DNA of 62,169 bases, filler included, from Barthelona sp. PAP020 (lineage: Eukaryota), in NCBI GenBank assembly GCA_040182905.1. It is 11 parts of 11 records of this genome, joined end to end, with 100 filler letters (N's around TTAATTAATTAA, not from the genome) between each part and the next. Parts side by side here need not be neighbours in the genome. Positions count along the whole stretch, not along the records: positions 11,425 to 17,187 come from JARQWU010000595.1; 10 more parts are not named here. The stretch is one strand, 5' to 3'. Each line of letters starts with the position of its first letter. The stretch's first letter is position 1. The notes below the pieces were generated by a model, which worked only from the letters and a program-made list of their open reading frames with translations, was not told where the DNA came from and did no database searches. Both the position numbers and the translations under genes were made by a program. Shown here one piece after another: positions 5,713 to 57,601 of this stretch.

Positions 5713-6047
5713 TTTTCAACAGATCAATCGGGCCTCGAAAGCCTTTAACCAAATAAACACTATTCTTTTTTATTCACTCATACGCACAGTGCTTCTTGGC
5801 TTGGAAATAAAGTCCACTAACGAAATAACTATATTTGTTTACAAAGAATATAAATTTCAGTCAAAATCCCCGGAGGGTTGAGAGACTGAATTATAACTTT
5901 AAAAAATCCAAAATTTTAAAGTTTTAACTATATTTTGAAAAATCAAAATCTTCAATAAATATATGTCGGGCCTTGAAAGTCTTTAACCCAATAAACACTA
6001 ATTTTTCTCATTCATTTATTCACCCAAAGTTTCCTGACCTGAATAAA
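5713..6047 (+). repeat. Dispersed repeat family C: one partial unit plus one diverged tandem unit
   Basis: TTTTCAACAGATCAATCGGGCCTCGAAAGCCTTTAACC...CATACGCACAGTGCTTCTTGGCTTGGAAATAA also occurs near 11635-11731 and 57503-57600; a diverged second unit (TCGGGCCTTGAAAGTCTTTAACC) lies near 5967. Confidence 0.9.
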
Positions 6048-6457
6048 AATTTGACTTTGTTAATCTTCCACCAGAAGTAGTTTTTGCCACAATTGAAGGG
6101 AAACAATTTTCAAAATGTTGGTGAAGCATCCCATTGCACCTTATCTAATTTAATCTATGTTTTGTAATTTGGTTGGACTCTTTTATGCAAATTATTGAAG
6201 TAAATACATCATAAACTAAATAATAGAAAAGCAGAAAGAGATTCTTTAGTTTCAAAGATATCCTTTTTTTTTTTTTCACTTTTCTTTTGTTAAGTGTTGA
6301 TTTTTCTTCTTTAGATAAAGTATTTTATGTATCAATATAACAAATTTTGAAATACACATTGAAATGAAGTATGTGTTCAAAAGTTTTTACTCTTTTCCTT
6401 TTTTCCTTCATTTTATTCCTTTATTTTCCATTTTAATCGAATCAAAATTAAAATCTA

Positions 6458-11424: not shown

Positions 11425-11733
11425 CAAGTTGTGAAACAACTATATTTATTTACAAAGAAAAAGTAATCAGAGAAAACTCATTTCATTAAATCTCAGCCAC
11501 AGAAAATGAGTGGCTGCAATTGAATCTTTCTCATCAAGTATTAAATTGTGGAAAAATTTTCCATTCCCATTCTTTTGTATTTTTTGCAAGAGTAAAACTT
11601 TAAAGTTTAAACTTTACCTTGGAAAATCAAAAGTTTTTCAACAGATCAATCGGGCCTCAAAAGCCCTTAACCAAAAAAACACCATTTTTTTTTATTCACT
11701 CATACGCACAGTGTTTCTGGGCTTGGAAATAAC
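11425..11733 (+). repeat. Dispersed repeat family C
   Basis: Aligns with 57150-57601 and 5713-5810; starts at the contig edge. Confidence 0.9.
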
Positions 11734-11935
11734 TAAACAATTTGACCTCTAAATTCATCCATTTACGTTGTTCTTTCTTTTTCATAAAAAAGAAAAGGTA
11801 AAGCATTTTTGAAATTGAAACATTAAAAAGAATATTTTTTCCCTTTTCATTAATTCTCTCATCATAAAAAAGTGCATTATCTATTGAATATAACAACAGC
11901 TTGAAGATTTACCGTTTTTTCTAAAAAAATGAAAT

Positions 11936-12338
11936 GAGGGTTGTTCACAAGCCTATTATTTTTGGCGAATCGAAATTTTCCGATTCTTCCTTTTTCCCTC
12001 GAGGTACGGAACTTTTCCTTAACCTAACCCCAAATTTTTGACCTGCCACGGTGAATACATGAAAACTTGCACAATTAGGATAAATTTTTAAAAATATCGG
12101 AGCTTTAAGCTCTTTTGAGCAATTAGTAATGCAATATTTCACACTCTGCATAGGGCATAGCTCTCCTACGAAAGCCTATGAAAGAGTAGGTCTCAAAAAA
12201 GAGAGGTTCCTTTCAGGAACGCTGGACGTTCTCGAAAAGAAGAAAGATTAAGGTATATTATTTATTAGTCAACTAAGTTTTCCCAGTCTCTAATTTGGGA
12301 AAGTTCTGGAAAAGGTTCGTTCAAAAAGAAAAATAAAA
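11936..12338 (-). mobile_element. Repeat A, ~400 bp non-coding element (putative SINE/MITE-like or structured RNA)
   Basis: Full-length reverse-complement match to 20992-21389; its ~110-bp terminus is shared with 15781-15887 and 28058-28165. Confidence 0.7.
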
Positions 12339-12648
12339 CATCGTAATCTCAATGGAAAGAACACAAACATCAATTCTACATAATAATGCAGAGAAAATGG
12401 CCTTAATTCAACACCATAACCCCTTAATCACCCGTATAGGTTGTATAGCTCATAGTTTAGTGAATACTGAAAGAAATTGCAGTTCAATCATATCTAAAAC
12501 CAAAACTGCACGCAATGAATATTTGTCAACATCGTTCATTGACATGAAGTGAATATTTGCAATTTGAATTTTTGGAGAAATTTTGAAAATTTCTAGTTTA
12601 TCTCCAATTTCAATTTTTCATTTATTTCTTTTTTTTTGTTAGTTTATT

Positions 12649-14807
12649 GTGTCTGTTGAATCAAGTAGTGAAATTGGAGAATTTACACGAGGTTTATTTC
12701 CTCTAAATATTGATGAAAATAGTGGAGGTGAAATTGCAAATGTGATTTCTAATTATTTGTGGGACATTAAATACTTGCCAAATGGTAAACAATTGGTTGT
12801 TGGTACTTATCAAGCTGTCTATGTTATTGATTTAGCAACTGGAATATTGAATCGTACATTGAAAGAGCATACACAGCATGTTTATGGTATTGCCATTTCA
12901 CCAAATGGGCAGAAGTTGGCAACATGTTCCAACGATAGGTTTATCATTGTATACAGCCTTCCAGATTTCTCCATCTTGTGTAGATTGAATGGTAGAACTC
13001 ATATTTATGGAATTTGTTTTTCTTCTTGTTCAAATTATGTATACTCTGGTGATTACAATGGAGATCTTACGAAATATGACACAAATAATGGGAGTATTGT
13101 CTTGGAAAAGAGAATTCAGAATAATTGGAGTTGGAGAGTGAAACTATCAACGAATGGTAAATATCTTTTGACCGGAGGTGGTGATGGTATTGCCAAGTTG
13201 GTTGACCCAGATGATTTATCGGTTGTTCGTACATTCAGTCAAGGTTACCAAATTAGAGCTATTGATTTCCACCCAACTGAAAGAATGATTGCTGTTGGTG
13301 ATCGTTTAAGAAAAGTTAAACTCTGGAACATGGACAACGGATCACTCATTCATACATTTGACATGGGTGGTGAAGTATGGTGTCTTCATTTCTTATCACC
13401 TTATATCCTGCTTATTATGTCTGGTGATGGCTATATTACCTCATTTCATGTTGAAACCTATCAGCGAATTCAAAAGGTACATTGTGGTTGTGACTCTACC
13501 GATTTTTCCTTTGCTATATCCCCAGACAAGACACAAATAGCGTGTGGAAGAAGAAGATCCAACAACACAATAAAATTATTCAAAATCATTCCTGACATCT
13601 CAGATCTAGTTGATGTTGATGTCCTGAAAACCCACAAATCAGACCTAATTGACCTCTCATGGTAGTGTTATATCATATTTACTCACGAATTATCAATTAA
13701 AACACACTGATACTATCATTGTTGAGCTTTTGTCATCAGGAATGTGTCTTTCAGCAGAAGAAGTCAATGAATTTACACAAGGTGACATGGATATTGTTCT
13801 AAATAATGCAGCTAACAGTAGAAATATGCGCCAATTTATCTCACCTGAACTTTTACTCCAATGTTTCATTGAACACAATGAAACACATCTCAAAAAGCAG
13901 ATGAATTTGCTTGCAAGCATTTAAACTTGCTTCCATAAAATCAAAAACCGAAAAGCCTGCTAATTTTAACAAAGATGTTCCTTGCCTGTGCCAAATCCCT
14001 ATTTGATACACAAGAAGGAGACCTTTTGTCCATGAACTTGTTGATTATTCAAAAAATGCTCAAAATGTTGTTTCATCTGTGATTTCAACCTCCAACCAGC
14101 AAGAAGCTTGTGGCACTGTTCTATTATTATTAAAATGTGGGCTTTGGATTTGTTATGATGAGTATGTTTTGATAAAACACATTTTGGATGATGTAATATG
14201 TGAGATAAGCTTCAAGAATGGTGGAAACATCAGGCAAATTCAATTTCCTCACTTTTATTTGTTTTTTACACTTGACGGATTTTCTTTTTCTAATTTGATG
14301 AAATTGACACTAAATAGACACCCTGAAGTACTCAGTAACTTATTTGATTTCATGGTTGAACATAAAAATCTGTTGTCTCAAACTGAAATGTCAGAACTAT
14401 GCGACTTTTCAGAAGCCTATCCGACATTTACTGGGCTTCTGTTTGAAAAAATTGTTCCACACTTGTCTGAAATATCTCGATTAATCTTCCCTGAACTTTT
14501 GCCTAAACATGTAATTTTTGAATTTCCAGCAATTGTAAAACCGTTTTCTCAAAAGATTGAAATGATTTCTGATTTAAAAGAGGAAAATAACCAACAGGAC
14601 GTTTTAATTGGCAACCTCTCAACACAACTTGAACGAGTTACGTCCGTTGTTGCTTTGCTCGTTCAAAACCAATCAAAAAACGTGAACACCCAAAGTCTGT
14701 AAATCGATTAGCTAAATTAGGAGCCATTCGAAGACAACATTGTTGAAGAACTTAAGACCCAACTTAAGGCTACCCTATCCTGGGCTAATCAACAGAATTC
14801 AAGTTAA
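12649..14807 (+). pseudogene. Variable WD40 family copy 1, with two C-terminal helical modules and a coiled coil; disrupted
   Basis: Near-identical to 16202 and 27730 up to nt 13551. Start is GTG where the paralogs have ATG. Frameshift near 13660, and further stops split ORFs 13649-13924 and 14079-14702. Confidence 0.8.
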
Positions 14808-14899
14808 AATCACTTGGGCTCAAACCCAGATCTGTTAATCGTGACAACTTTGATGAATTCATTGACCTTTCTATCAAAATGTATATCTCCAAATATCAA

Positions 14900-15887
14900 T
14901 CGATCACTGAAACAATGAGAAGTGTTTTTTTGGAATTCTCTGTTTTGGCCACAGATTTAGCAGTATGTAGTTTTGAGGATCTGATGGCTTTATGCGTGCT
15001 GTAAATTGTTTTTTTGTCACTAATTTCTTTTTCATCAGCAGAAGGCGATTTCCAAGGTTATAACTTTTCATTTTATAAAGGGTCATAATTCTTTCATTTG
15101 CTAATGCATTATCTCAAGTGCATTTAGATAGGACTTGAACAAGAGTGAACTGTCTTTTGTTGTGTTTGAAAGAATACTTTTATGTCTGTTTTCAACAGAA
15201 GATCAAGGGGTCAATATCTGATGCCAAAGCAGAGGGTGTGCTTGACTTATAGGGAGACACTCTTTGCAGCCACATGTTGAAGAATGTTGAGACTCTCTTT
15301 TTTGGTTTTCTTAAATTTGATACCAGTTATGAGCTCCTGAACCCACTCTTCATCAGTCTAATACCATTTTTTTGACCGTTTCTTTGAACAGCAATACCCA
15401 TCCTATTCTTTCTACTTCAGCAAAGAATCTTATACTTTCATTCCCTACTGCCCCATAATCTTCTTCTTCACCAATTGTGTTTATCAGTTAGACCCAACAA
15501 CCATTGAGCGCGAGATCTTCATCTATTTGTAACGCATCTTCTGGGAATTATTTTTGGAAGTTAGCCACATACAACGCTATTATGAGGATTGATACCGCTT
15601 CATTATAAAGGAGTTTAGCATTAGCATCCTCTTTTTTGATCTCTTTGAATTTGATTCCTGAGAAGAGTTCTTGAACCCACTCTTCATAACTGTAAAAATT
15701 ATTATTGGACAACCCTTGTGGAATGTTTCTTTTCATTGCTGAAACCACTCTGTAACACGTTACCCCTTTAACAAGAACCCCCGAAAAGAATAAAGATTGA
15801 AGTTTATTATTTATTAATCAATTGAGGTTCCCAGTCTCTGATTTGGATAAGCTGTGGAAAAGGTTCGTACAAGAAGAAAAATAAAAA
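14900..15887 (-). mobile_element. Repeat B: terminus shared with repeat A plus a decayed ORF; left boundary uncertain
   Basis: 15384-15887 matches 28058-28560 in reverse complement. The stop-riddled frame contains a duplicated EEWVQEL..GIKFK motif. Confidence 0.55.
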
Positions 15888-16201: not shown

Positions 16202-17187
16202 ATGTCTGTTGAATCAAGTGGTGAAATAGGAGAATTTATACGTGGTTTATTTCCTCTAAAGATTGATGAAAATAGTGTAGATGAAATTGAAAATGTGATT
16301 TCTAGTTATTCGTGGGACAGTAAATACTTGCCAAATGGTAAACAATTGGTTGTTGGTAGTCATCAAGCTGTTCATGTTATTGATGTAGCAACTGGAATAT
16401 TGAATCGTACATTGAAAGAGCATACAGACAATGTTTATGGTATTGTCATTTCACCAAATGGGCAGAAGTTGGCAACATGTTCCCGTGATAAGTCTATCAT
16501 TGTATACAGCCTTCCAGATTTCTCCATCTTGTGTAGATTGAATGGTGGAGGTTGTATTTGTGGAATTTGTTTTTCTTCTTGTTCAAATTATGTATATTAT
16601 GGTGATACCAATGGAACTCTTACGAAAAGTGACACAAATAATGGGAGAATTGTCTTGGAAAAGAGAATTTCGAATAGATTTATTTGGAGAGTGAAACTAT
16701 CAACGGATGGTAAATATCTTTTGACTGGATGTGGTGATGGTGGAACTGCCAAGTTGGTTGACCCAGATGATTTGTCTGTTGTTCGTACATTCAGTCAAGG
16801 TTGCGGAATTAGAGCTATTGATTTCCACCCAACTGAAAGAATGATTGTTGTTGGTGATGAATCGAAAAAAGTCAAACTCTGGAACATAGACGACGGATCA
16901 CTCATTCATACATTTGATATGGGTGGTCAAGTATGCTGTCTTCATTTCTTATCACCTTATATCCTGCTTATTATGTCTGGTGATGGATATATTACCTCAT
17001 TCAATGTTGAAACTCATCAGCAAATTCAAAAAGTACATTGTGGTTGTAACCCTTTCGGTTTTTCCTTTGCTGTATCCCCTGATAAGACACAAATAGCGTG
17101 TGGAAGATGTGCAGGGAATGTCATCAAAATCTATTCAATTGTCATTGACTATAACCCCTCACATGAGGCGGAACTCATTCGATTGTC
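16202..17187 (+). CDS. Variable WD40 family copy 2, 3' truncated by the contig end
   Basis: ATG start; about 7 WD40 blades (e.g. HTDNVYGIVISPNGQKLATCSRDKSIIVY, AIDFHPTERMIVVGDESKKVKLWN); paralog of 12649 and 27730. Confidence 0.9.
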
Positions 17188-20962: not shown

Positions 20963-20991
20963 AATTTGTAAATATTTTCGGAAAATTTTGA

Positions 20992-21389
20992 TTTGTTTTT
21001 CTTCTTGTACGAACCTTTTCCAGAACTTACCCAAATCAGAGACTGGAATCTCAGTTTATTGATAAACAATAAACCTTAATCTTTATTCTTTTCGGAGGAT
21101 CCAGCGTTCCTGAAAGGAGCCTCTCTTTTTTGAGACCTACTCTTTCATAGGCTTTCGTAGGAGAGCTACGCTCTATGCGGGGTATGAAATATTGCATTAC
21201 TAATTGCTCAAAAGAGCTTAACGTTCCGATATTTTAAAAAGAATTATCCTAATTGTGTAATTTTTCATGCATTCACCGTGGCAGATCAAAAATTTGGGGG
21301 TAAGTTAAGGAAAAGTTCCGTACCTCGAGGTAAAAAGAAAAATCGGAAAATTTCTATCAGCCAAAAAGAATAGCTTCTAAACAACACTC
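20992..21389 (+). mobile_element. Repeat A, second full copy, followed by a T-run
   Basis: Reverse-complement match to 11936-12338; flanks differ between copies; T13 at 21390-21402. Confidence 0.7.
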
Positions 21390-21540
21390 TTTTTTTTTTT
21401 TTCTTCTTTTTGACAATCTGAAGGTAAAAATGATAAATGATCGGGTTTTCCTTATACCATAAAGCAAAATTGGTGAAAATATTGTTAGCACAAGAAGAAT
21501 TGTAAATATGCGCAAATGAAGGGAAGACTGTTGATGTCAT

Positions 21541-21652
21541 GGTAAACGGCGGGGTAACTATGATTCTTTTAAGGTAGCCAAATGCCTCGTCACCTAATTA
21601 GTGGCGCGCATGAATGGATTAACGAGGTTCCTACTGTCCCTATCTACTATCT
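21541..21652 (+). rRNA. Isolated 112-bp LSU (28S) rDNA fragment, non-functional
   Basis: GGTAAACGGCGGG-GTAACTATGA...TTAAGGTAGCCAAATGCCTCGTCA...GCGCATGAATGGATTAACGAG...ACTGTCCCTATCTACTATCT is the conserved helix 69-71 region; both flanks are non-rRNA. Confidence 0.92.
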
Positions 21653-25540: not shown

Positions 25541-26560
25541 TATTATAATGTCAAAAATGAAAAAAAAAAGTCTTTGAAGATTTTTTGAAATTTTAATGTT
25601 GCCTTTTATTTAACATTTGATATAACATATGTTTGGAAATCAATCAAATTATGTTTTACATCTTATTTCTTTGAAAATTTATTTTCCATCTTTCATTTTC
25701 CAAACACTTTGCAATTCATTTTGATAAAATCAAAGAATCTAAACAATTTTGAAACAACTAAAAAATCAAAAATAAATATATAACAGTGTTATTATTGTGA
25801 AAAGAAAAATACTTGTTTGTTAATTTAAAAAAGGGATGTTGAATCAAGCAAATTTAACTTTTGCATCTTTTATTTGTATCACTGAAGTGAATTACATTGA
25901 AAAAAGAATGTAAAAAAATAGAAAATATTGAAGATTTTACAAATAACCCTGTTCCCTTTCCGACAAAATGAACAACTCAAACAAAAATGTATTAGTTGAT
26001 GCTATTCAAGGCACATCCTTACCAATAAAAAAGAAAACAACACACACCAAAGAAAAGGACAGCTAAGGATTTATTGAGAAATTAGCTTTCATATTGGAAT
26101 ATTCACAAAAATAGACAAAGAAAGGTTAACATGAACAATGAACTAAATTCAAAAATAAATTATAAACAACTGGATTGAAGAACTGGATTTCAACTTCAAA
26201 TTTGGAAAATCTCAAATAACCTTGTGAAGAAAGGCAAAAAAAGATAGCACAATAATATGCACAGCAAATAAAGCCAATAGATCCAGAAAGTGGCATACAG
26301 CCAACCAAAGAAAAAAATCTGTTTCTCATGTCCAATCATCAATCAAAATTAGACAGACCTTGTGATGGAAACGAAAACTGTTGGATTTGAACTCGAATTA
26401 AAGAACAATAAAAAAAAAACCAAGGAACATCTGCCAAATGAAAATGAAAATGAACCAAATAATTGTTCAAAACAGAAAATTCTCAGTGCATCCCCAAAAT
26501 GATGTTTTGGATCATTTTTCCAACTAATCAATCATCAACTTCATCACTTTCATAATCACT

Positions 26561-27730
26561 TTATTCATTGAAAAATGAGTGCATATTTCCACCCTTCATT
26601 TCATTAATGTCAGATAAATCCCAACATGTGTCAACAATCATGCTATACTCCACTTCATTCATGTATATCCCTGCGGCTACCAATTGTCTTATGAGTTGAG
26701 TATCAATATTCAAAGCCATAAGATTCGACAACACATAGCCACCATCCCTTGACAATCGAATGAGTTCTGCCTCATGTGAAGGGTCATAGTCAATGACAAT
26801 TGAATAGATTTTGATGACATTCCCTGCACATTTTCCACACGCTATTTGTGTCTTATCAGGGGATATAGCAAAGGAAAAATGGGAAGAGTCACAACCACAA
26901 TGCACCTTTTGAATTTGCTGATAAGTTTCAACATTAAATGAAGTAATATAACCATCACCAGACATAATAAGCAGGATATAGGGTGATAAGAAATGAAGAC
27001 AGTATACTTGACCACCCATATCAAATGTATGAATGAGTGATCCGTCGTCCATGTTCCAGAGTTTGACTTTGTTTGAACGATCACCAATAGCAATCATTCT
27101 TTCAGTTGGGTGGAAATCAATAGCTCTAATTTCGCCACCTTGACTGAATGTACGAACAACAAACAAATTATCTGGGTCAACCAACTTGACAATATCACCA
27201 CCTCCAGTCAAAAGATATTTACCATCCGTTGAAAGTTTCACACTCCAAACCCCATTATTCTGAATACTTTTTTCTAAGACAATTCTCCCATTATTTATGT
27301 CATCTTTCGTAAGAGTTCCATTGTAATCACTATAATATACATAATTTGAACAAGAAGAAAAACAAATTCCATAAATAAAAGTTCCACCATTCAATCTACA
27401 CAAGATAGAGAAATCTGGAAGGCTGTATACAATGATAGACATATCACCAGAACATGTTGCCAACTTCTGCCCATTTGGTGAAATGGCAATACCAAAAACA
27501 GAGCTTGTATGGTCTTTCAATGTACGATTCAATATTCCAGTTGCTACATCAATAACATAAACAGCTGCACGACTACTAACAACCAATTGTTTACCATTTG
27601 GCAAGTACTTACTGTCAAAGAAATAATCAGAAATCACATTTGCAATTTCAACTTCACTATTTTCATCAATCTTTGGAGGAAATAAACCACGTATAAACTC
27701 TCCTATTTCACCACTTAATTCAACAGACAT
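26561..27730 (-). CDS. Variable WD40 family copy 3, complete: propeller plus ~65-aa C-terminal module
   Basis: ATG 27730 (MSVELSGEIGEF) aligns with the paralog starts; the ORF is uninterrupted. Confidence 0.9.
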   Translation of the reverse strand: MSVELSGEIGEFIRGLFPPKIDENSEVEIANVISDYFFDSKYLPNGKQLVVSSRAAVYVIDVATGILNRTLKDHTSSVFGIAISPNGQKLATCSGDMSIIVYSLPDFSILCRLNGGTFIYGICFSSCSNYVYYSDYNGTLTKDDINNGRIVLEKSIQNNGVWSVKLSTDGKYLLTGGGDIVKLVDPDNLFVVRTFSQGGEIRAIDFHPTERMIAIGDRSNKVKLWNMDDGSLIHTFDMGGQVYCLHFLSPYILLIMSGDGYITSFNVETYQQIQKVHCGCDSSHFSFAISPDKTQIACGKCAGNVIKIYSIVIDYDPSHEAELIRLSRDGGYVLSNLMALNIDTQLIRQLVAAGIYMNEVEYSMIVDTCWDLSDINEMKGGNMHSFFNE

Positions 27731-28057: not shown

Positions 28058-28560
28058 TTTTATTTTTCTTCTTCTACGAACCTTTTCCACAGCTTATCCA
28101 AATCAGAGACTGGGAACCTCAATTGATTAATAAATAATAAACTTCAATCTTTATTCTTTTTCGGGGGTTCTTGTTAAAGGAGTAACGTGTTACAGAGTGG
28201 TTTCAGCAATGAAAAGAAACATTCCACAAGGGTTGTTTAACAATAATTTTTGCCGTTATGAAGAGTGGGTTCAAGAACTCTTCTCAGGAATCAAATTCAA
28301 AGAGATCAAAAAAGAGGATGCTAATGCTAAACTCCTTTATAATGAAGCTGTATCAATTTTCATAATAGCGTTGTATGTGGCTAACTTCCAAAGATAACCC
28401 CAGAAGATGCGTTACACACAGATGAAGATCTCACACTCAATGGTTGTTGTGTCTGACTGATAAACACAATTGGTAAAGAAGAAGATTATGGTACAGTAGG
28501 GTATGAAAGTATATTATTCTTTGCTGAAGTAGAAAGAATAGGACAGGTATTGCTGTTCAA
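28058..28560 (+). mobile_element. Repeat B, second copy, cut by the contig end
   Basis: Reverse-complement match to 15384-15887, including the decayed MKRNIPQG... frame. Confidence 0.6.
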
Positions 28561-28660: not shown

Positions 28661-30391
28661 GCTGATGTTTGGTCATTTGGTGTAATGTTGGCTCAGGTCA
28701 TTTCTGGGTTTGTTCCATTTGATGGGTTGACTGAGTTTCAAATTGCTGTTAAATTGAGTAGGGGACAACTTCCGTATAGCAAGGAATTGTTGGACACAAT
28801 ACCTGGGTTTGGAATTATTAAGAGGTGTTTGGCTGTTGAGGCAGATGCTAGGCCAACGTTTAGCGAGATCACTGAGTATTTACAGATGCTGATTGAGCGT
28901 TTCGAGGGGTTAGGATTCGACGAGAAGAGGTTGGTGAAGGAGAATGCTGTGTTGAAAGAGGAAAATAAGATTTATGAGGAAAGGGTTCAGAGTTTAACAA
29001 GGAAGGTTGATGAGTTAAATGAGGAAAGAAATGAATGCATGAATGAAAAAAAAAAATTAATCCATGAAAATGGTCAGTTGAAAGAAGAAACAGAGAAATT
29101 GACAAGTCACAACCAAGAATTAATTAATCAAATGGCCAATTTTATGGAAGAAAAAAAAAACTGGATGAATAAAAACCAAGAATTAGTCAATAAAGTGAAC
29201 AAGCATATGGAAGAAAAAAGAACCTGGATGAATGAAAAGCAAGAATTAACAAATCAAGTCCATCATTTGACAAACCAATTGAATGAACTTATGAATAACA
29301 ATGATAGAAAACAATCAGTTGAAAATAGAAAGCAAGTTGTTTCAACCTGTTTAACCAACCAATTGAATGAGCTTTTGGATAACAATAATCAAGATCAACA
29401 CAGTAAAAATAGAAATCAAGTTATTCGTACAGTCGAAAGGTTTGAAGAAAGTCCTGCTTTTAATGAGGAATTTCCTAATAAATTTGTTCATGCCCTTGAT
29501 TACAGCCCTGATGGACGGTTTTTTGCGGTTGCTGGATACGGCAACAAATTACTCAGAGTCTTCAACGCTGAAACACATGAAATTATGCATGAAGGCCAGT
29601 ATGTAAACACTATTGGTCTCAATTTCAGTCCCAACTCCAAATTATTGGCTGTTGGTGGTAGTTTTGGTGATAGTACAGCAATTCATATCATTGAGGTTGA
29701 TACATGGAGAACATTAAGAGTAATTAGGCCTAAAGCAAGGAATGTAATGGGCGTGTGGTTTTCACATGATGGCATTCCAGCGAATGTATTGAATTTGTGG
29801 TTCTCACCAGATGGAAAACTGCTTTATTTTGGTATGGAGTTTGGTTACATCGCCATATACACTGTCGAAGGACAGAAGTTGCATGAATCTCGAGCTCATG
29901 AAAAAATTGTTCAATCTGTACGTATCAGCCCCGACATGAAGTACTTTGCATCTGTCAGCAATGATAAATGTTCAAAGTTATTTTCATTAGAGACGTATGA
30001 AGAGCTTCACACGTGGAGTCATGACAGAAAGAGTGTCGGCTCAGGCAACTTCTCACCTGATAGTGCTATTTGGGCAACAGGTGATGACAGTGGTACAGTC
30101 AGGATATTTAATGTTGAATCCAGAGAGTTGATGGGAAAGTGGAAGGTTCATAACAACAGCATATACTCAATTATCTTCTCCCAAGATGGTTCACTGATCT
30201 ATTCTGGTTCTACTGATAAATCTTTTGCTGTGATTCGAAGAGAAACTGGTCAAGTGTTGCAGAAAGTGGATGTATCTTTTGGGATTTATATTATGGCCCT
30301 CAGCCATGATGGAACTCGTTTGTTATGCAGTGGAAAAAAAAGCAACAGAGAAAATGTCCCAATCCAAGAATTCATTGCTTCAGACCTGTAA
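28661..30391 (+). CDS. Protein kinase (C-lobe only visible) + coiled coil + WD40 propeller; 5' truncated
   Basis: Frame open from the contig start: ADVWSFGVML...PF...IIKRCL....ARPTF (subdomains IX-XI), then heptad repeats, then YSPDG/FSPDG/ISPD/FSQDG blades. Confidence 0.9.
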   Translation, partial: ADVWSFGVMLAQVISGFVPFDGLTEFQIAVKLSRGQLPYSKELLDTIPGFGIIKRCLAVEADARPTFSEITEYLQMLIERFEGLGFDEKRLVKENAVLKEENKIYEERVQSLTRKVDELNEERNECMNEKKKLIHENGQLKEETEKLTSHNQELINQMANFMEEKKNWMNKNQELVNKVNKHMEEKRTWMNEKQELTNQVHHLTNQLNELMNNNDRKQSVENRKQVVSTCLTNQLNELLDNNNQDQHSKNRNQVIRTVERFEESPAFNEEFPNKFVHALDYSPDGRFFAVAGYGNKLLRVFNAETHEIMHEGQYVNTIGLNFSPNSKLLAVGGSFGDSTAIHIIEVDTWRTLRVIRPKARNVMGVWFSHDGIPANVLNLWFSPDGKLLYFGMEFGYIAIYTVEGQKLHESRAHEKIVQSVRISPDMKYFASVSNDKCSKLFSLETYEELHTWSHDRKSVGSGNFSPDSAIWATGDDSGTVRIFNVESRELMGKWKVHNNSIYSIIFSQDGSLIYSGSTDKSFAVIRRETGQVLQKVDVSFGIYIMALSHDGTRLLCSGKKSNRENVPIQEFIASDL

Positions 30392-40501: not shown

Positions 40502-43500
40502 CTAGAACCTATATAACCCATCATTCATTGAATTTGTATGAACGTTTGGATAAGGTGCAGAAGAAAACACACTGTCCAAACCATAATTTACTGTACTATC
40601 TAAAGTCATGTGTGGATTAGTTAAATTTTGAATGGAACTGAAGCTTTCAGTTGAAGACTTGGAAGTTTCAGACAAAATAGAAGATGTTCGATTATTTGCA
40701 AGGTATAACATTGGGTTTCTTAAAGGATTATGTGATTGATTGTTCGAATTGATAACATCGGAAAGATCTATAATTTTTTGGTAAATTTTCAGAAAGTTTC
40801 TGATAATCATTATGATGGAACACAACAACAGCAATACAAAAACAAAAACAACAACAATAGAATCGTTTGCAACAACATCTAGTTTGATAAGAGTTTGAAG
40901 TAAAAACATCATCAAAATTGAGGATAAATAGAATGTCTGTAATTGATTAATATCATGTAATTTATATGAATAACTGCTTAGATGTTGAGTTAAAAAGATG
41001 AAACTGAAACTGAAGCCTAAACAAGCTTGGAAAACTGTAGATCTAGCTAAAAACATCAACCAAATACCTAAAACTGAACTACCAAAAAATTCGAACAATT
41101 CATGAAAGTATTTTAAATCTATTGTGAGTCCAGCAAAAGTGAAGAATGTGCTTTTGAAAAACTTTTCTTTGATCTTCTTTTTTTTGCTGGATTTCCCTTT
41201 AGATTTGGATTTCCCTTTCTTTTCTAACTCATTTTCATTTGAAAAATCTTTTTTTGTCAAAAATATATACATGAAAACAATAAATATGAAAAACAATATT
41301 GAAATGATCCGTAAAACATTGAATAAAACATTTGAATTGTCGCAAATAATTCCAGAATATTCAGTAATTCTGCTATCAACACCATTTGAAGTACAATCAA
41401 ACAATCGACTGAATAAAAATGAATATCTCATGACATTCAACAAAAAAAAACTGAAAAACATTTGTTTCCACTCACATAGGCTTCTTAAAATGAAACATAT
41501 CAAAAAAATAATGATCAAATATGCCAAGGCATACGCATAGATGAAATAGAATATAAATTCAGCATCAAAATTCAAACAATGTAACGTTGAAAAATTAATA
41601 ATGTCAACAAACAAAATTCTCAAAATTACAAGCGTTTTCGTTATGAATGTAGGAAATTTAACCAATAATACCAGAGTCAAAGCACTTATAATATGTAAAT
41701 ATCTTAAAAATGTCTTTAAAAATGCAACCAAAGCATAATTCGATTTTCTGCTGACAAAAGTAATGTAAAAGATAGCAATCCAAATCAATTGTGGTATGAT
41801 TAACAACAATACATTGATACTAGAGCTAAAGCATTGAACACATTCGTTACCTAAACTAAAATATCCATTATCACATTCTCCACATAAAGGTCCCGTGGAA
41901 CCAATAATGCAACTGTCACTTTCTAAAGTGATATTCTTTCCACTCAATTTCGCTTCACAATTTCCTTGACAACCATCTTGTTGGCATTCAAAAACTTCTT
42001 GCACATCAGAATTATACCAATAACCTTCCTTCACACAAAAGTCATTATTCCCAAAACACATCAAACCTTCTGGACATTCAATACAACTGACATAATATTC
42101 TTTTGCAGTTTCATTCCAAGTTTTTACTGGATACATTGATCCTGCACATTCACATCCATCTCTGCTTGAAGAAGATTGCATTCCATTCGGACATTTTATA
42201 CATTTAACACTTCCAACATCATTAGTATATGAACTGGAAGGACAATCAATACAACCATTGATTAGATCATCAGGATCGTTTCGATAGGTCCCTATTGGAC
42301 AAGGATAACATTCAGATGAACGTTTGGAACTTGTCCATGTTCCTATTTCACAATTAATACATGGATCTTCAGAAGAATCAGAAGAATAGGTTCCAACAGG
42401 ACATTCATAACATTGGTTTGTCTCTGCATCAAATCCAAGTCCTTCTACACAAAAGTCAATTGTGACTTGGAATTTTGCTGGATTTAGTCCAGCGCTACTA
42501 GCAAATATATCATAATTACCTGGATCACCATGTAATTGAACATTGGAAAAATTGGCAAAACCGTTTGTTGAAATGATTGACATATTTCCTTGTAAGGCTA
42601 AGTCTGCATCCACTGATGTTAAGAAAACTTCTCTGTTCCAATTAAAAGTTGCATGTTGATCAAAATCATCGAAAAGTTTGATACTGACAAACGTATTGGG
42701 AATTGAATCAATAATAGTTGTTCTGGATTCAAATTGTTTCAAAGATCTGGGGTCTGTTGCAAAAAAAACCCCATAATATGAAGCAAAATTGTCATGAATT
42801 ACTGGAGCAGATGGAATAAATAAATCTTTGAGATCAACACTCATTAAATTAGTAAAAATAACACCTCCAATCAAAGCGTTGTTTTTTACATATTTATTGT
42901 CAACAAAATTCAATGATAAAACATCAATCGTTTGATATTCAACATTTTCACTTTCAATTTTGATAACATTATTATCTAGTATGGCAAAAACACCTCCAAA
43001 ATCTGAATAATTATTAGTAAAGTTATTTTTTGAAAATTTAATGATTCCATAACTTTGAATCAAACAAATTGTACCAAAACTACCACCTTTATCATAAAAT
43101 GAATGATTATTTGTGGAAATTATTTGATTTTGAGCAAAAACAGAATTCATTACTATACTGGATAAAGATCTGATCAAATGAAAAACATTTCCATAGTTAT
43201 TATGAAAAATACAATCCTCTACATACAATTTTGATTGAATAGCATATATAAGACGTTTTGCTCCAACATTATAAAATTCACAACCTTCAAAATTAATAAA
43301 ACTTTCATACTTTATCACCATCATATTCATCGTTTGCAAAGAAATATTCATAAAATTTAAATTTTTAAAAGATACAACGCTATTTTCAAAAAGAAATAAA
43401 GGATTAATGTTCGTTTCATCCGAAAAATAGAGATTTGAAAATGTTGAATTACTCACAACTCTTACATTACTTTCCAAACTCTCAATTATCGATGTTATTG

Positions 43501-44515
43501 AATGTCCCACTGAAGAAAAGATATTAGTAGTGTTAAATTCAATGCTAGAAGTAATTAAATGTAAAAAATATTTTTTAAACGTGATTTCAGTAAAATTAAA
43601 AGTACTAGCAGTAAAATATACTTTTGTATCGAATAAAATAAATCCATAAGAAGCATCAAATGATTTAGTCAAGTTCATACTTTCAATATCAACAATAGAT
43701 GAAGATGACATCATAAATCCACCATTATTTCCATATATACCATTAAAATAACATTTATTTAGCTTCATTAAAACATCAGAGATCTGAAATAAGCCATTAA
43801 AACCTTTATTTTCAAAAAATTCACAATTATGAAATTCAACATCACTACTTATTCCTTGCAATATTGAAACAGTCTCTTTTGCTTCATTATTGCTAAATAT
43901 ACTATCTTTTATAATCAATTTATTCATGTAATTAACATTAAATAAAGTGGAAAATTGATAAGAATCACCATAATTATCATCAAACACACAATCGTTTATA
44001 ACTCCTTCTCCTTTGGTTATTGTAAAAACCTTATTAGAGTCATTGACATATAAGTTATAAAATTCGAATTTACTGTTCGTTATAGCAAACACAGACGAAC
44101 AATGCTGGAATCTAATATTTTCTAACACAGCATAATCATTGTATAAGATAGATACAGCAGGTTGTCGTACATTTTTGTACGAGCTGCAATCAAAAATAGT
44201 TACTCCATCGTTCGAACCAATTAAAGAATATCCATTCAACACTTCTATCGACTCTTTATAAATCCCATCTAATAACTTGAATGTTTTTTTATCTTGGAAA
44301 TTTTCACAAGTCTTTATACTACAATATTCTTTTATTTCTTCGTATCGATCATAGGAATAATTTATAGTAGCACATGGTTCTAATTGTGATCCGCAAAATT
44401 CACTATCGTTTCCATTTGAAGATATAAAAATAAAATTCACATCAATCTCACATTTAACTGATAAAAATACATATAAAAAGCATAATGTATACAAAATAAT
44501 CGTCAAATGTTTCAT
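40502..44515 (-). CDS. Large surface protein: signal peptide, Pmp-like beta-helix repeats, Cys-rich repeats, multi-pass membrane domain
   Basis: GND...CG....PCATI cap; FxxN and GGV motifs; CxxCPxGTY repeats; TGPLCGEC; several hydrophobic helices at the C-terminus. Confidence 0.85.
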   Translation of the reverse strand: MKHLTIILYTLCFLYVFLSVKCEIDVNFIFISSNGNDSEFCGSQLEPCATINYSYDRYEEIKEYCSIKTCENFQDKKTFKLLDGIYKESIEVLNGYSLIGSNDGVTIFDCSSYKNVRQPAVSILYNDYAVLENIRFQHCSSVFAITNSKFEFYNLYVNDSNKVFTITKGEGVINDCVFDDNYGDSYQFSTLFNVNYMNKLIIKDSIFSNNEAKETVSILQGISSDVEFHNCEFFENKGFNGLFQISDVLMKLNKCYFNGIYGNNGGFMMSSSSIVDIESMNLTKSFDASYGFILFDTKVYFTASTFNFTEITFKKYFLHLITSSIEFNTTNIFSSVGHSITSIIESLESNVRVVSNSTFSNLYFSDETNINPLFLFENSVVSFKNLNFMNISLQTMNMMVIKYESFINFEGCEFYNVGAKRLIYAIQSKLYVEDCIFHNNYGNVFHLIRSLSSIVMNSVFAQNQIISTNNHSFYDKGGSFGTICLIQSYGIIKFSKNNFTNNYSDFGGVFAILDNNVIKIESENVEYQTIDVLSLNFVDNKYVKNNALIGGVIFTNLMSVDLKDLFIPSAPVIHDNFASYYGVFFATDPRSLKQFESRTTIIDSIPNTFVSIKLFDDFDQHATFNWNREVFLTSVDADLALQGNMSIISTNGFANFSNVQLHGDPGNYDIFASSAGLNPAKFQVTIDFCVEGLGFDAETNQCYECPVGTYSSDSSEDPCINCEIGTWTSSKRSSECYPCPIGTYRNDPDDLINGCIDCPSSSYTNDVGSVKCIKCPNGMQSSSSRDGCECAGSMYPVKTWNETAKEYYVSCIECPEGLMCFGNNDFCVKEGYWYNSDVQEVFECQQDGCQGNCEAKLSGKNITLESDSCIIGSTGPLCGECDNGYFSLGNECVQCFSSSINVLLLIIPQLIWIAIFYITFVSRKSNYALVAFLKTFLRYLHIISALTLVLLVKFPTFITKTLVILRILFVDIINFSTLHCLNFDAEFIFYFIYAYALAYLIIIFLICFILRSLCEWKQMFFSFFLLNVMRYSFLFSRLFDCTSNGVDSRITEYSGIICDNSNVLFNVLRIISILFFIFIVFMYIFLTKKDFSNENELEKKGKSKSKGKSSKKKKIKEKFFKSTFFTFAGLTIDLKYFHELFEFFGSSVLGIWLMFLARSTVFQACLGFSFSFIFLTQHLSSYSYKLHDINQLQTFYLSSILMMFLLQTLIKLDVVANDSIVVVFVFVLLLLCSIIMIIRNFLKIYQKIIDLSDVINSNNQSHNPLRNPMLYLANNRTSSILSETSKSSTESFSSIQNLTNPHMTLDSTVNYGLDSVFSSAPYPNVHTNSMNDGLYRF

Positions 44516-45340: not shown

Positions 45341-45409
45341 GCCGGTATAGCCTAATTGGATAGGGTATTAGACTTCTAATCTGAGGATTCTGGGTTCGAG
45401 TCCCAGTAC
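45341..45409 (+). tRNA. tRNA-Arg(TCT), 3' acceptor strand truncated at the contig end
   Basis: D arm GCCT/GGGT, anticodon arm TTAGA-CTTCTAA-TCTGA, T arm CTGGG-TTCGAGT-CCCAG; only 3 acceptor pairs remain before a fold-back. Confidence 0.85.
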
Positions 45410-56925: not shown

Positions 56926-57012
56926 TCCGGACTACCAGAGTTGAACTGGTGACCCTCTGATGGCTGTAAAGCCTACTACAGTCAGATGCTCTGCCAACTG
57001 AGCTAAGTCCGG
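56926..57012 (-). tRNA. tRNA-Tyr(GTA) with a 14-nt intron (56962-56975)
   Basis: Acceptor CCGGACT/AGTCCGG, D arm GCTC/GAGC, anticodon stem TCTGA/TCAGA, intron at 37/38, T arm ACCAG-TTCAACT-CTGGT, oligo-T Pol III terminator. Confidence 0.97.
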
Positions 57013-57149: not shown

Positions 57150-57601
57150 GTAACAATTATATTTATTTTCAAAGATAAAGCAAACAAAAAAAAACATATT
57201 TCATTGAATCTCAACCACAGAAAATGAGTGGCTATAATTGAATCTTGGTAAGTATGAAAATTTTGGAAATATTTGGTCCAGTTGTGAAATAAATATATTT
57301 ATTTACAAAGAAAGTAAACTTAGAAAACCCATTCTAGCAAATTTCATTAAAACCCCAGGTGGAATTGAGGAACTGAAATGAATTTTTTACCATTAAGTAT
57401 TTTTTTTTTGAGAATTTTGGAGAAATTTTCCATTCCCATTTTTTTGAATTTTTGCAAAAGCAAAATTTTAAAGTTTAAACTTTACCTTAGAAAATCTAAA
57501 GTTTTTCAACAGATCAATCGGGCCTCGAAAGCCTTTAACCGAATAAACACTATTCTTTTTTATTCACTCATACGCACAGTGCTTCTTGGCTTGGAAATAA
57601 A
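57150..57601 (+). repeat. Dispersed repeat family C with an internal partial duplication
   Basis: Matches 11425-11733 and 5713-5810; the TATATTTATTT.CAAAGA subunit occurs twice. Confidence 0.88.

Follow-up and report, generated by a model that had tools for sequence, protein, structure and literature searches.

Copy 1 of a WD40 gene from Barthelona sp. PAP020 changes abruptly at position 13551 from DNA shared with its paralogues to different DNA. The locus raises the question of whether this switch produced a sensor with a newly swapped effector, as the first-pass annotation had proposed, and of what the C-terminal tail domain encoded beyond it is. Barthelonids are free-living anaerobic metamonads (flagellates). 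The window, that is, the whole stretch of 62,169 nucleotides analyzed, is AT-rich eukaryotic DNA made up of contigs of ~5.5 kb separated by N spacers. It contains the WD40 gene in three copies, of which copies 1 and 2 lie on one contig (11425-17187) and copy 3 on a different one. The nearest database proteins are transcript-derived records under the name Barthelona sp. PAP020. The relevant features are as follows.

12233-12648, plus strand: upstream flank common to copies 1-3, the 5' part of the homology tract (blastn).
12649-13551, plus strand: WD40 part of copy 1, comprising blades 1-6 and strands a, b, and d of blade 7; open frame with a GTG start codon.
13528-13551, plus strand: last exact run with copy 2 (24 nt); recombination-type junction in blade 7.
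13552-13626, plus strand: strand c of blade 7 and linker, divergent but homologous, in frame with the WD40 part.
13627-13843, plus strand: tail domain copy A, degenerate; profile E 6.3e-7; frameshift near 13660; invariant Arg missing.
13844-14024, plus strand: linker homologous to protein records P0001/P0002; frameshifts near 13890 and at 14021-14024; stop at 13936.
14025-14240, plus strand: tail domain copy B, degenerate; profile E 1.6e-5; invariant Arg and Trp missing.
14241-14702, plus strand: region ending in a heptad-patterned stretch; no Pfam family at E <= 10.
16202-17187, plus strand: copy 2, a WD40 gene that starts with ATG and runs off the contig where its tail begins.
26561-27730, minus strand: copy 3, a seven-blade WD40 protein with one canonical tail domain (26785-26564).
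26528-26563, minus strand: acidic C-terminal end of copy 3, 11 residues, lost to the TAA at 26563-26561, where P0007 has Gln.

The AlphaFold2 model of copy 3, built from a 34-row alignment, has a pLDDT of 94.5, a pTM of 0.87, and 28 strands. The protein belongs to the WD40 family as judged by Pfam (WD40 E 4e-23 to 5e-26) and by the seven four-stranded blades with velcro closure seen in the model. The head has the same fold as WDR5-like seven-blade propellers (Foldseek E 7e-24, TM 0.87 to the target, 18% identity). However, this fold covers only residues 19-313 of copy 3 and leaves the tail unexplained. Copy 3 is identical to the protein record P0007 at 144 of 145 positions (tblastn). A code in which the TAA of the copy-3 stop is read as Gln was rejected: TAA terminates 8 of the 12 ORFs checked (one of them copy 3), CAA is common, and TAA is an ordinary stop in the window. 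A decayed coding relic, divergently oriented and with an internal repeat, is co-duplicated with copies 2 and 3 at 91% identity (15100-15817, minus strand, and 28120-28560, plus strand); it has no Pfam family of note.

The close DNA match of copy 1 to copies 2 and 3 does end at 13551. In a blastn self-comparison copy 1 is 87.1% identical to copy 2 over 12233-13551 and 86.9% identical to copy 3 over 12235-13549, and at these points the alignments stop. Beyond the switch, blastn finds nothing better between 13552-14702 and the 3' end of copy 3 than a match of 12 nt (E 0.06). Protein identity to copy 3 falls from 247/299 (83%) before the switch to 24/88 (27%) after it. The last exact run with copy 3, at 22 nt, is close in length to that with copy 2. 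The switch had been placed after the last blade, but in the copy 3 model it follows residue 299-300, inside blade 7 (strands 286-289, 295-301, 305-313, and 19-29) and between strands b (295-301) and c (305-313). Since a homologous strand c continues in frame and is followed by a tail, the new DNA stems from a remote paralogue within the family that was joined in register.

The 5' part of copy 1 differs from copies 2 and 3 at only 0.09-0.12 of silent sites, whereas in the 3' part the DNA alignment is lost altogether. A faster-evolving end of a single gene cannot explain this difference, and recombination or gene conversion is therefore inferred. Thus the mosaic structure announced by the first-pass annotation is present in the sequence, and recombination between distant paralogues is its likely cause. 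The junction could have formed through exchange between homologous sequences where strand b ends in a conserved stretch, the putative partners being a copy-2/3-type gene of recent origin and an older paralogue with two tails, in either direction. Upstream of the gene, the flanks of copies 1 and 2 are 80-84% identical per 100 nt. A 419-bp repeat (88%) on opposite strands, at 11923-12340 and 20989-21402, makes up the upstream flank of copy 1, and its overlap of ~110 bp with the flank shared with copies 2/3 amounts to another mosaic junction on the 5' side of copy 1.

A quite improbable alternative is that the junction at 13551 is an assembly chimera of two paralogous genes, in which case the domain family described below stands regardless. 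The contigs are short (~5.5 kb), there are several copies 87-91% identical to each other, the junction coincides with a 24-nt exact run, and none of the sequences examined spans it. Specifically, the related records P0001 and P0002 begin only within copy A, which leaves 13551 without an independent sequence across it. On the other hand, the two parts meet within blade 7 with reading frame and register preserved, and the 5' part of copy 1, which carries top-face residues of its own, represents a separate paralogue. Upstream, copy 1 shares even longer exact runs with copy 2 (52 nt) and copy 3 (45 nt) that show no switch, and a mis-join would still require identical DNA in both genes at that point.

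The two diverged tail versions reported beyond 13551 are true, although degenerate, homologues of the copy 3 tail. The annotation had called for a profile of the tail, and a profile built from 44 tails that include neither A nor B (described below) finds both (E 6.3e-7 and 1.6e-5). They are the top two non-family pieces among the 1382 six-frame pieces of the window, and their profile scores were reached by 0 of 997 scored shuffles for A and 0 of 980 for B. A profile of five canonical tails likewise places both above all other six-frame pieces. In pairwise comparisons, the copy 3 tail matches A with a score of 72 (reached by 0 of 2000 shuffles) and B with a score of 40 (43 of 2000); A against B scores 35 (466 of 2000). 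Both copies sit on long branches in the tail tree, where B and P0001/P0002 form a clade with a long stem. For a third tail copy downstream of B there is a hint at most (shuffle tests 2/964, 41/938, and 113/988). The end of 14241-14702 is a probable coiled coil, as read by eye from its heptad pattern. No noteworthy second tail copy is present in any of the 44 proteins with canonical tails (best additional match E 0.26), which marks the double tail as a side branch.

Copy 1 is broken and is not an intact gene. It begins at 12649 with GTG instead of ATG, and frameshift-aware alignment to P0001, P0002, and P0007 locates frameshifts near 13660, near 13890, and at 14021-14024 and a stop at 13936. 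On inspection, an intron at 13661 was rejected because it would remove the conserved helices 2-3 of the tail. A general sequence error is unlikely, as the remaining long genes in the window are intact. The ORF at 14007-14699 is 81% identical to transcript-derived P0001 and 63% to P0002; it gave one ESM Atlas lead (0.77), without a family. Both records read through the last three breaks of copy 1 as a single frame, but begin inside tail copy A, and P0002 has an extra frameshift near its end relative to the window and P0001. Judging from these protein records alone, the double-tail subfamily of the copy-1 type looks transcribed but decaying. A search over lengths of 567-2000 amino acids found no intact long form of this type, and no related locus was confirmed among 90 pattern matches in metagenome contigs or four in viral contigs. 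Past the copy-1 stop, protein-like frames at 14703-15004 (plus strand) may represent more of the gene, likewise decayed; 14789-15001 has no Pfam match.

It is accordingly very improbable that copy 1 functions as a sensor into which a new effector module has been swapped. In favor of this are the mosaic itself, the open frame that the WD40 part retains, and the transcript-derived relatives of the 3' part, P0001 and P0002. However, copy 1 has no ATG start and carries three frameshifts and one stop, general sequence error is unlikely in view of the intact long genes elsewhere in the window, and the relative P0002 is itself frameshifted. For copy 1 the proposal of the first-pass annotation is thus largely refuted. 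The junction is an ordinary instance of gene-family turnover in a broken copy and matters as a record of recombination and decay. The main finding is rather the unnamed tail domain and the receptor family under selection that carries it.

The tail had been described as a C-terminal domain of ~65 residues without a known family. Its size is ~70-74 residues, and the lack of a Pfam family holds for the tail in the nine tail pieces and 13 whole proteins scanned; one of the nine pieces gave a weak UBA match (E 0.048). A search of 1.84 billion representatives with a nine-row tail profile returned 44 matches at E <= 1e-3. Two of these, P0034 and P0040, were left out as sums of short repeat matches, and P0002 was set apart as copy-1 type. 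The canonical set (n = 44) consists of the remaining 41 matches and three others. As the representatives are at most 50% identical to each other, the number of genes is likely higher. Names were looked up for 22 of the 44 matches (19 Barthelona sp. PAP020, P0007, and the two artefacts) and for P0001, P0003, P0004, and P0006. In total, 23 of the 24 family proteins looked up bear the name Barthelona (sp. PAP020), P0007 being the exception.

Seven residues of the tail, Arg39, Gly45, Asp62, Leu63, Asn67, Gly72, and Asn73, are invariant in all 45 tail rows. In all 44 proteins the tail ends 7-30 residues from the C terminus, mostly before an acidic stretch. The chain terminates in Asp-Asp in 30 of the 44 and in three Asp residues in 21; the acidic end varies in length and is absent from several members, with 14 of the 44 lacking a terminal Asp-Asp. 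The heads are of several kinds. A WD40 profile matches 36 of the 44 proteins, and the others are as follows.

P0017: ankyrin head.
P0042: ankyrin head, with a kinase-like N terminus read by eye.
P0024: armadillo head (E 0.0013, below cutoff).
Remaining heads: three proteins of 877-961 amino acids, one protein without an assigned head, and one fragment.

The median identity between pairs is 29% for the WD40 part, 42% for the tail, and 50% for the tail core, and the tail is more similar than the WD40 part in 482 of 496 pairs (32 WD40 members). Across the family, therefore, the tail is the constant part and the heads are the part that differs. The earlier proposal of a WD40 sensor joined to an exchangeable adaptor or effector is borne out in that a WD40 head carries an unrecognized C-terminal domain, repeated in copy 1, but not as regards exchange, since it is the tail that stays constant and the heads that vary. 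Three of the 45 branches of the tail tree are starred, and the non-WD40 heads could not be placed on it. Elsewhere in the window, a single frame at 28661-30391 (plus strand), cut by the contig start, encodes a kinase C-lobe, coiled-coil repeats, and a WD40 propeller; the tail profile finds no tail domain in it.

The tail is predicted by AlphaFold to form a compact fold of five helices (residues 8-18, 24-30, 35-43, 50-69, and 74-77; pLDDT 89.7, pTM 0.79). The annotation had suggested AlphaFold and Foldseek runs against death-fold, HeLo, and SOCS-box-like adaptors. The helical model so obtained is confident, and Foldseek gave no match to it in the PDB at E <= 0.001 (best E 2.1). The BFVD gave no match (best E 1.1), VIA-align found none at Z >= 5 among 48,161 chains (best Z 4.6, to MMS19, rmsd 3.6 with 69 residues aligned), and the best Z in a second fold comparison was 2.7. 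Such searches without a clear match prove neither a new fold nor a difference from the families considered. At the sequence level, the best E of the tail profile against PDB sequences was 0.12, and the ESM Atlas gave no usable match to the tail. Resemblances of the tail to ankyrin, UBA, PPR, and LisH were considered but rejected, the weak UBA match being the only one to appear. The SOCS-box fold has three helices, the death fold has six, and HeLo is a four-helix bundle, compared with five helices in the tail model.

The arrangement of the family resembles that of known receptor systems. The repeat types found among these heads are also those of cullin-ligase receptors (PMC3355856, PMC4327156). 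Among the SOCS-box receptors of Cul5 ligases covered in the first of these, WSB proteins combine WD40 with a SOCS box and ASB proteins combine ankyrin with a SOCS box (PMC3355856). As in these receptors, a repeat head (WD40 or ankyrin) is followed by a short conserved helical C-terminal box. Unlike the SOCS box, the tail is longer (~70 residues), has its conserved core in the last three helices, and is followed by an acidic end. The SOCS-box family is also reported as a holozoan gain (PMC4327156).

The BC box has the consensus (S,T,P)LxxxC/S/AxxxPhi (PMC3355856). No tail of the 44 has this motif in the register of helix 1. There are near-misses, with the hydrophobic residue at +4 in two of the 44 and a match elsewhere in one, and helix 1 has Leu-x-x-x-Ser/Ala/Cys, half of a BC box, in 31. 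The Cul5-box motif LP-Phi-P is found in none of the 44 tails and a loose Cul2-box pattern in five. No F-box, SOCS, or PRANC match was given by Pfam for the nine tail pieces and 13 whole proteins at E <= 10. By analogy of architecture, the tail may work like a SOCS box or F-box, yet it is no member of these families by motif and profile tests.

Nematode and plant F-box and MATH-BTB families, reportedly described by Thomas in 2006, are said to have many paralogues, a conserved adaptor, a fast-evolving binding domain, and frequent pseudogenes. The tail family is like them in being rich in paralogues, in pairing a constant adaptor with a fast-changing binding domain, and in having pseudogenes. Unlike them, it has no F-box or BTB Pfam match among the members scanned, and its constant domain is C-terminal; the placement of F-box and BTB domains differs from this. 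Poxvirus ankyrin-PRANC proteins combine an ankyrin head with a C-terminal F-box-like adaptor. P0017, with its ankyrin head and adaptor-like C-terminal tail, is similar, but P0017 and P0042 have no PRANC Pfam match, and the present family is cellular with mostly WD40 heads.

Amino-acid change in the propeller is in excess on its top face. Top-face codons (n = 59) were defined on the copy 3 model as the end of each d-a loop to R1 plus the b-c loop. The counts come from copies 1-3 only, by simple counting, and the clustering had been spotted by eye before the 59-codon set was defined. Over the 298 shared codons dN/dS is 0.99, 0.72, and 1.18 for the three pairs, values that hide two classes of sites. 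On the top face pN is 0.25-0.30 against a gene-wide pS of 0.08-0.12, a ratio of 2.1-3.7 (Fisher p 4e-3 to 3e-7). At the other 239 codons the pN/pS ratio is 0.41-0.53, and in the bottom loops it is 0.27-0.40. The top-face pS of 0.09-0.12 is not elevated, which is evidence against mutation being locally more frequent there. Of the 19 positions that differ in all three copies, 16 are on the top face and none is among the 59 bottom-loop positions. With the pseudogene copy 1 set aside, the pair of copies 2 and 3 gives the same result (ratio 3.7).

The R1, R1-2, and D-1 positions are described as WD40 interaction hotspots in two publications (PMC4383882; PMC4754046). These positions are variable at 14 of 20, compared with 54 of 278 elsewhere, and pN at the 20 hotspots is 2.6-4.5 times the gene-wide pS. 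On these counts from three sequences, the binding face of the propeller is under diversifying selection.

In the Podospora NWD genes, including het-d and het-e, the WD repeats show positive selection on the interaction surface, exchange between members, and pseudogenes (PMC1805685). The present family is like these fungal non-self receptors in the positive selection on the WD40 interaction surface (three sequences, by counting). Unlike them, copy 3 has no nucleotide-binding domain and consists of propeller and tail only, and no NACHT or NB-ARC family was among the Pfam families listed for the members scanned. Further differences are that exchange here is at the level of the gene and that the constant domain, which lies at the C terminus, shows no relationship in sequence.

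A constant small domain, interchangeable binding repeats, selection that acts on the binding face, and frequent loss of genes together form the pattern of a receptor repertoire, as in cullin-ligase substrate receptors (PMC3355856, PMC4327156) and fungal non-self receptors (PMC1805685), and this is the basis for reading the tail as an adaptor. The reading we favor, which we regard as an even bet, is that the tail serves as a constant docking handle through which all members reach the same machine, with a ubiquitin ligase as the most likely candidate, while the WD40 faces diversify, copy 1 being a broken member that probably arose by recombination in blade 7. The heads would bind varied targets, which might be foreign proteins from viruses, symbionts, or bacterial prey. 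A single common partner would be bound by the tail core together with the acidic end, and captured targets would be delivered via the tail to the shared machine. The placing of this partner in the ubiquitin system, which is most likely on architecture, would follow from analogy with F-box, SOCS-box, and PRANC receptors and not from sequence or fold.

The same logic of variable receptors would apply if the tail were a constant handle for a non-ubiquitin machine, such as Cdc48/p97, a TPR co-chaperone, or a trafficking coat. TPR clamps recognize Asp-ended C termini, and the strong preference for terminal Asp (three in 21/44, two in 30/44) and the failure of the cullin-adaptor motifs would fit such a partner. 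However, the sequence matched no known binding motif, and the acidic end varies in length and is missing from several members. We consider this explanation unlikely.

It is also improbable, in our estimation, that the tail is a homotypic assembly or signaling domain working in the manner of death-fold domains, by which ligand-bound heads would cluster and set off a response, the double-tail genes serving as adaptors. A constant small helical domain on variable sensors, the tandem double copy in the copy-1 subfamily, and the resemblance of the top-face selection to that of fungal non-self receptors (PMC1805685) would all suit this proposal. Nevertheless, the 44 proteins include no stand-alone or enzyme-linked downstream adaptor except for one kinase-like head, the double-tail copies lack the invariant Arg and are broken or truncated, and the acidic end is left unexplained.

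Several further features were observed in the window. A short stretch at 21545-21650, stranded within non-coding DNA, resembles a conserved part of large-subunit rDNA, the target region of the R2 retrotransposon; Rfam does not list it at the gathering score. A dispersed non-coding repeat of up to ~320 bp and 75-99% identity, often at contig ends, is present at 11427-11732, 57280-57600, 5713-5811, and 5909-6049. A 1337-residue protein encoded at 40502-44515 (minus strand) has a beta-helix and cysteine-rich ephrin-receptor-like repeats and is a probable surface protein. tRNA matches were found at 56926-57012 (minus strand, 87 nt) and 45345-45409 (plus strand).

Returning to the docking-handle reading, animals, plants, fungi, and viruses all offer examples of families that combine variable heads with a constant adaptor and undergo diversifying selection. 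We found no description of such a family in barthelonids, and the main texts of two papers (PMC11316075, PMC7542792) contain no mention of WD40 or ubiquitin, although their supplements could differ. A conserved unnamed domain on more than 40 receptors is a direct handle on the machine that they serve, and the tail could reveal a new cullin-adaptor box or a defense pathway in a deep-branching anaerobic eukaryote. It is a tentative and somewhat doubtful extension that barthelonids possess their own intracellular surveillance repertoire of dozens of receptors, with WD40 faces under pressure from pathogens or prey, reshuffled by recombination and linked by a new adaptor to one degradation or signaling machine. 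If true, it would mean that a free-living metamonad had arrived independently at the F-box/SOCS/NLR principle.
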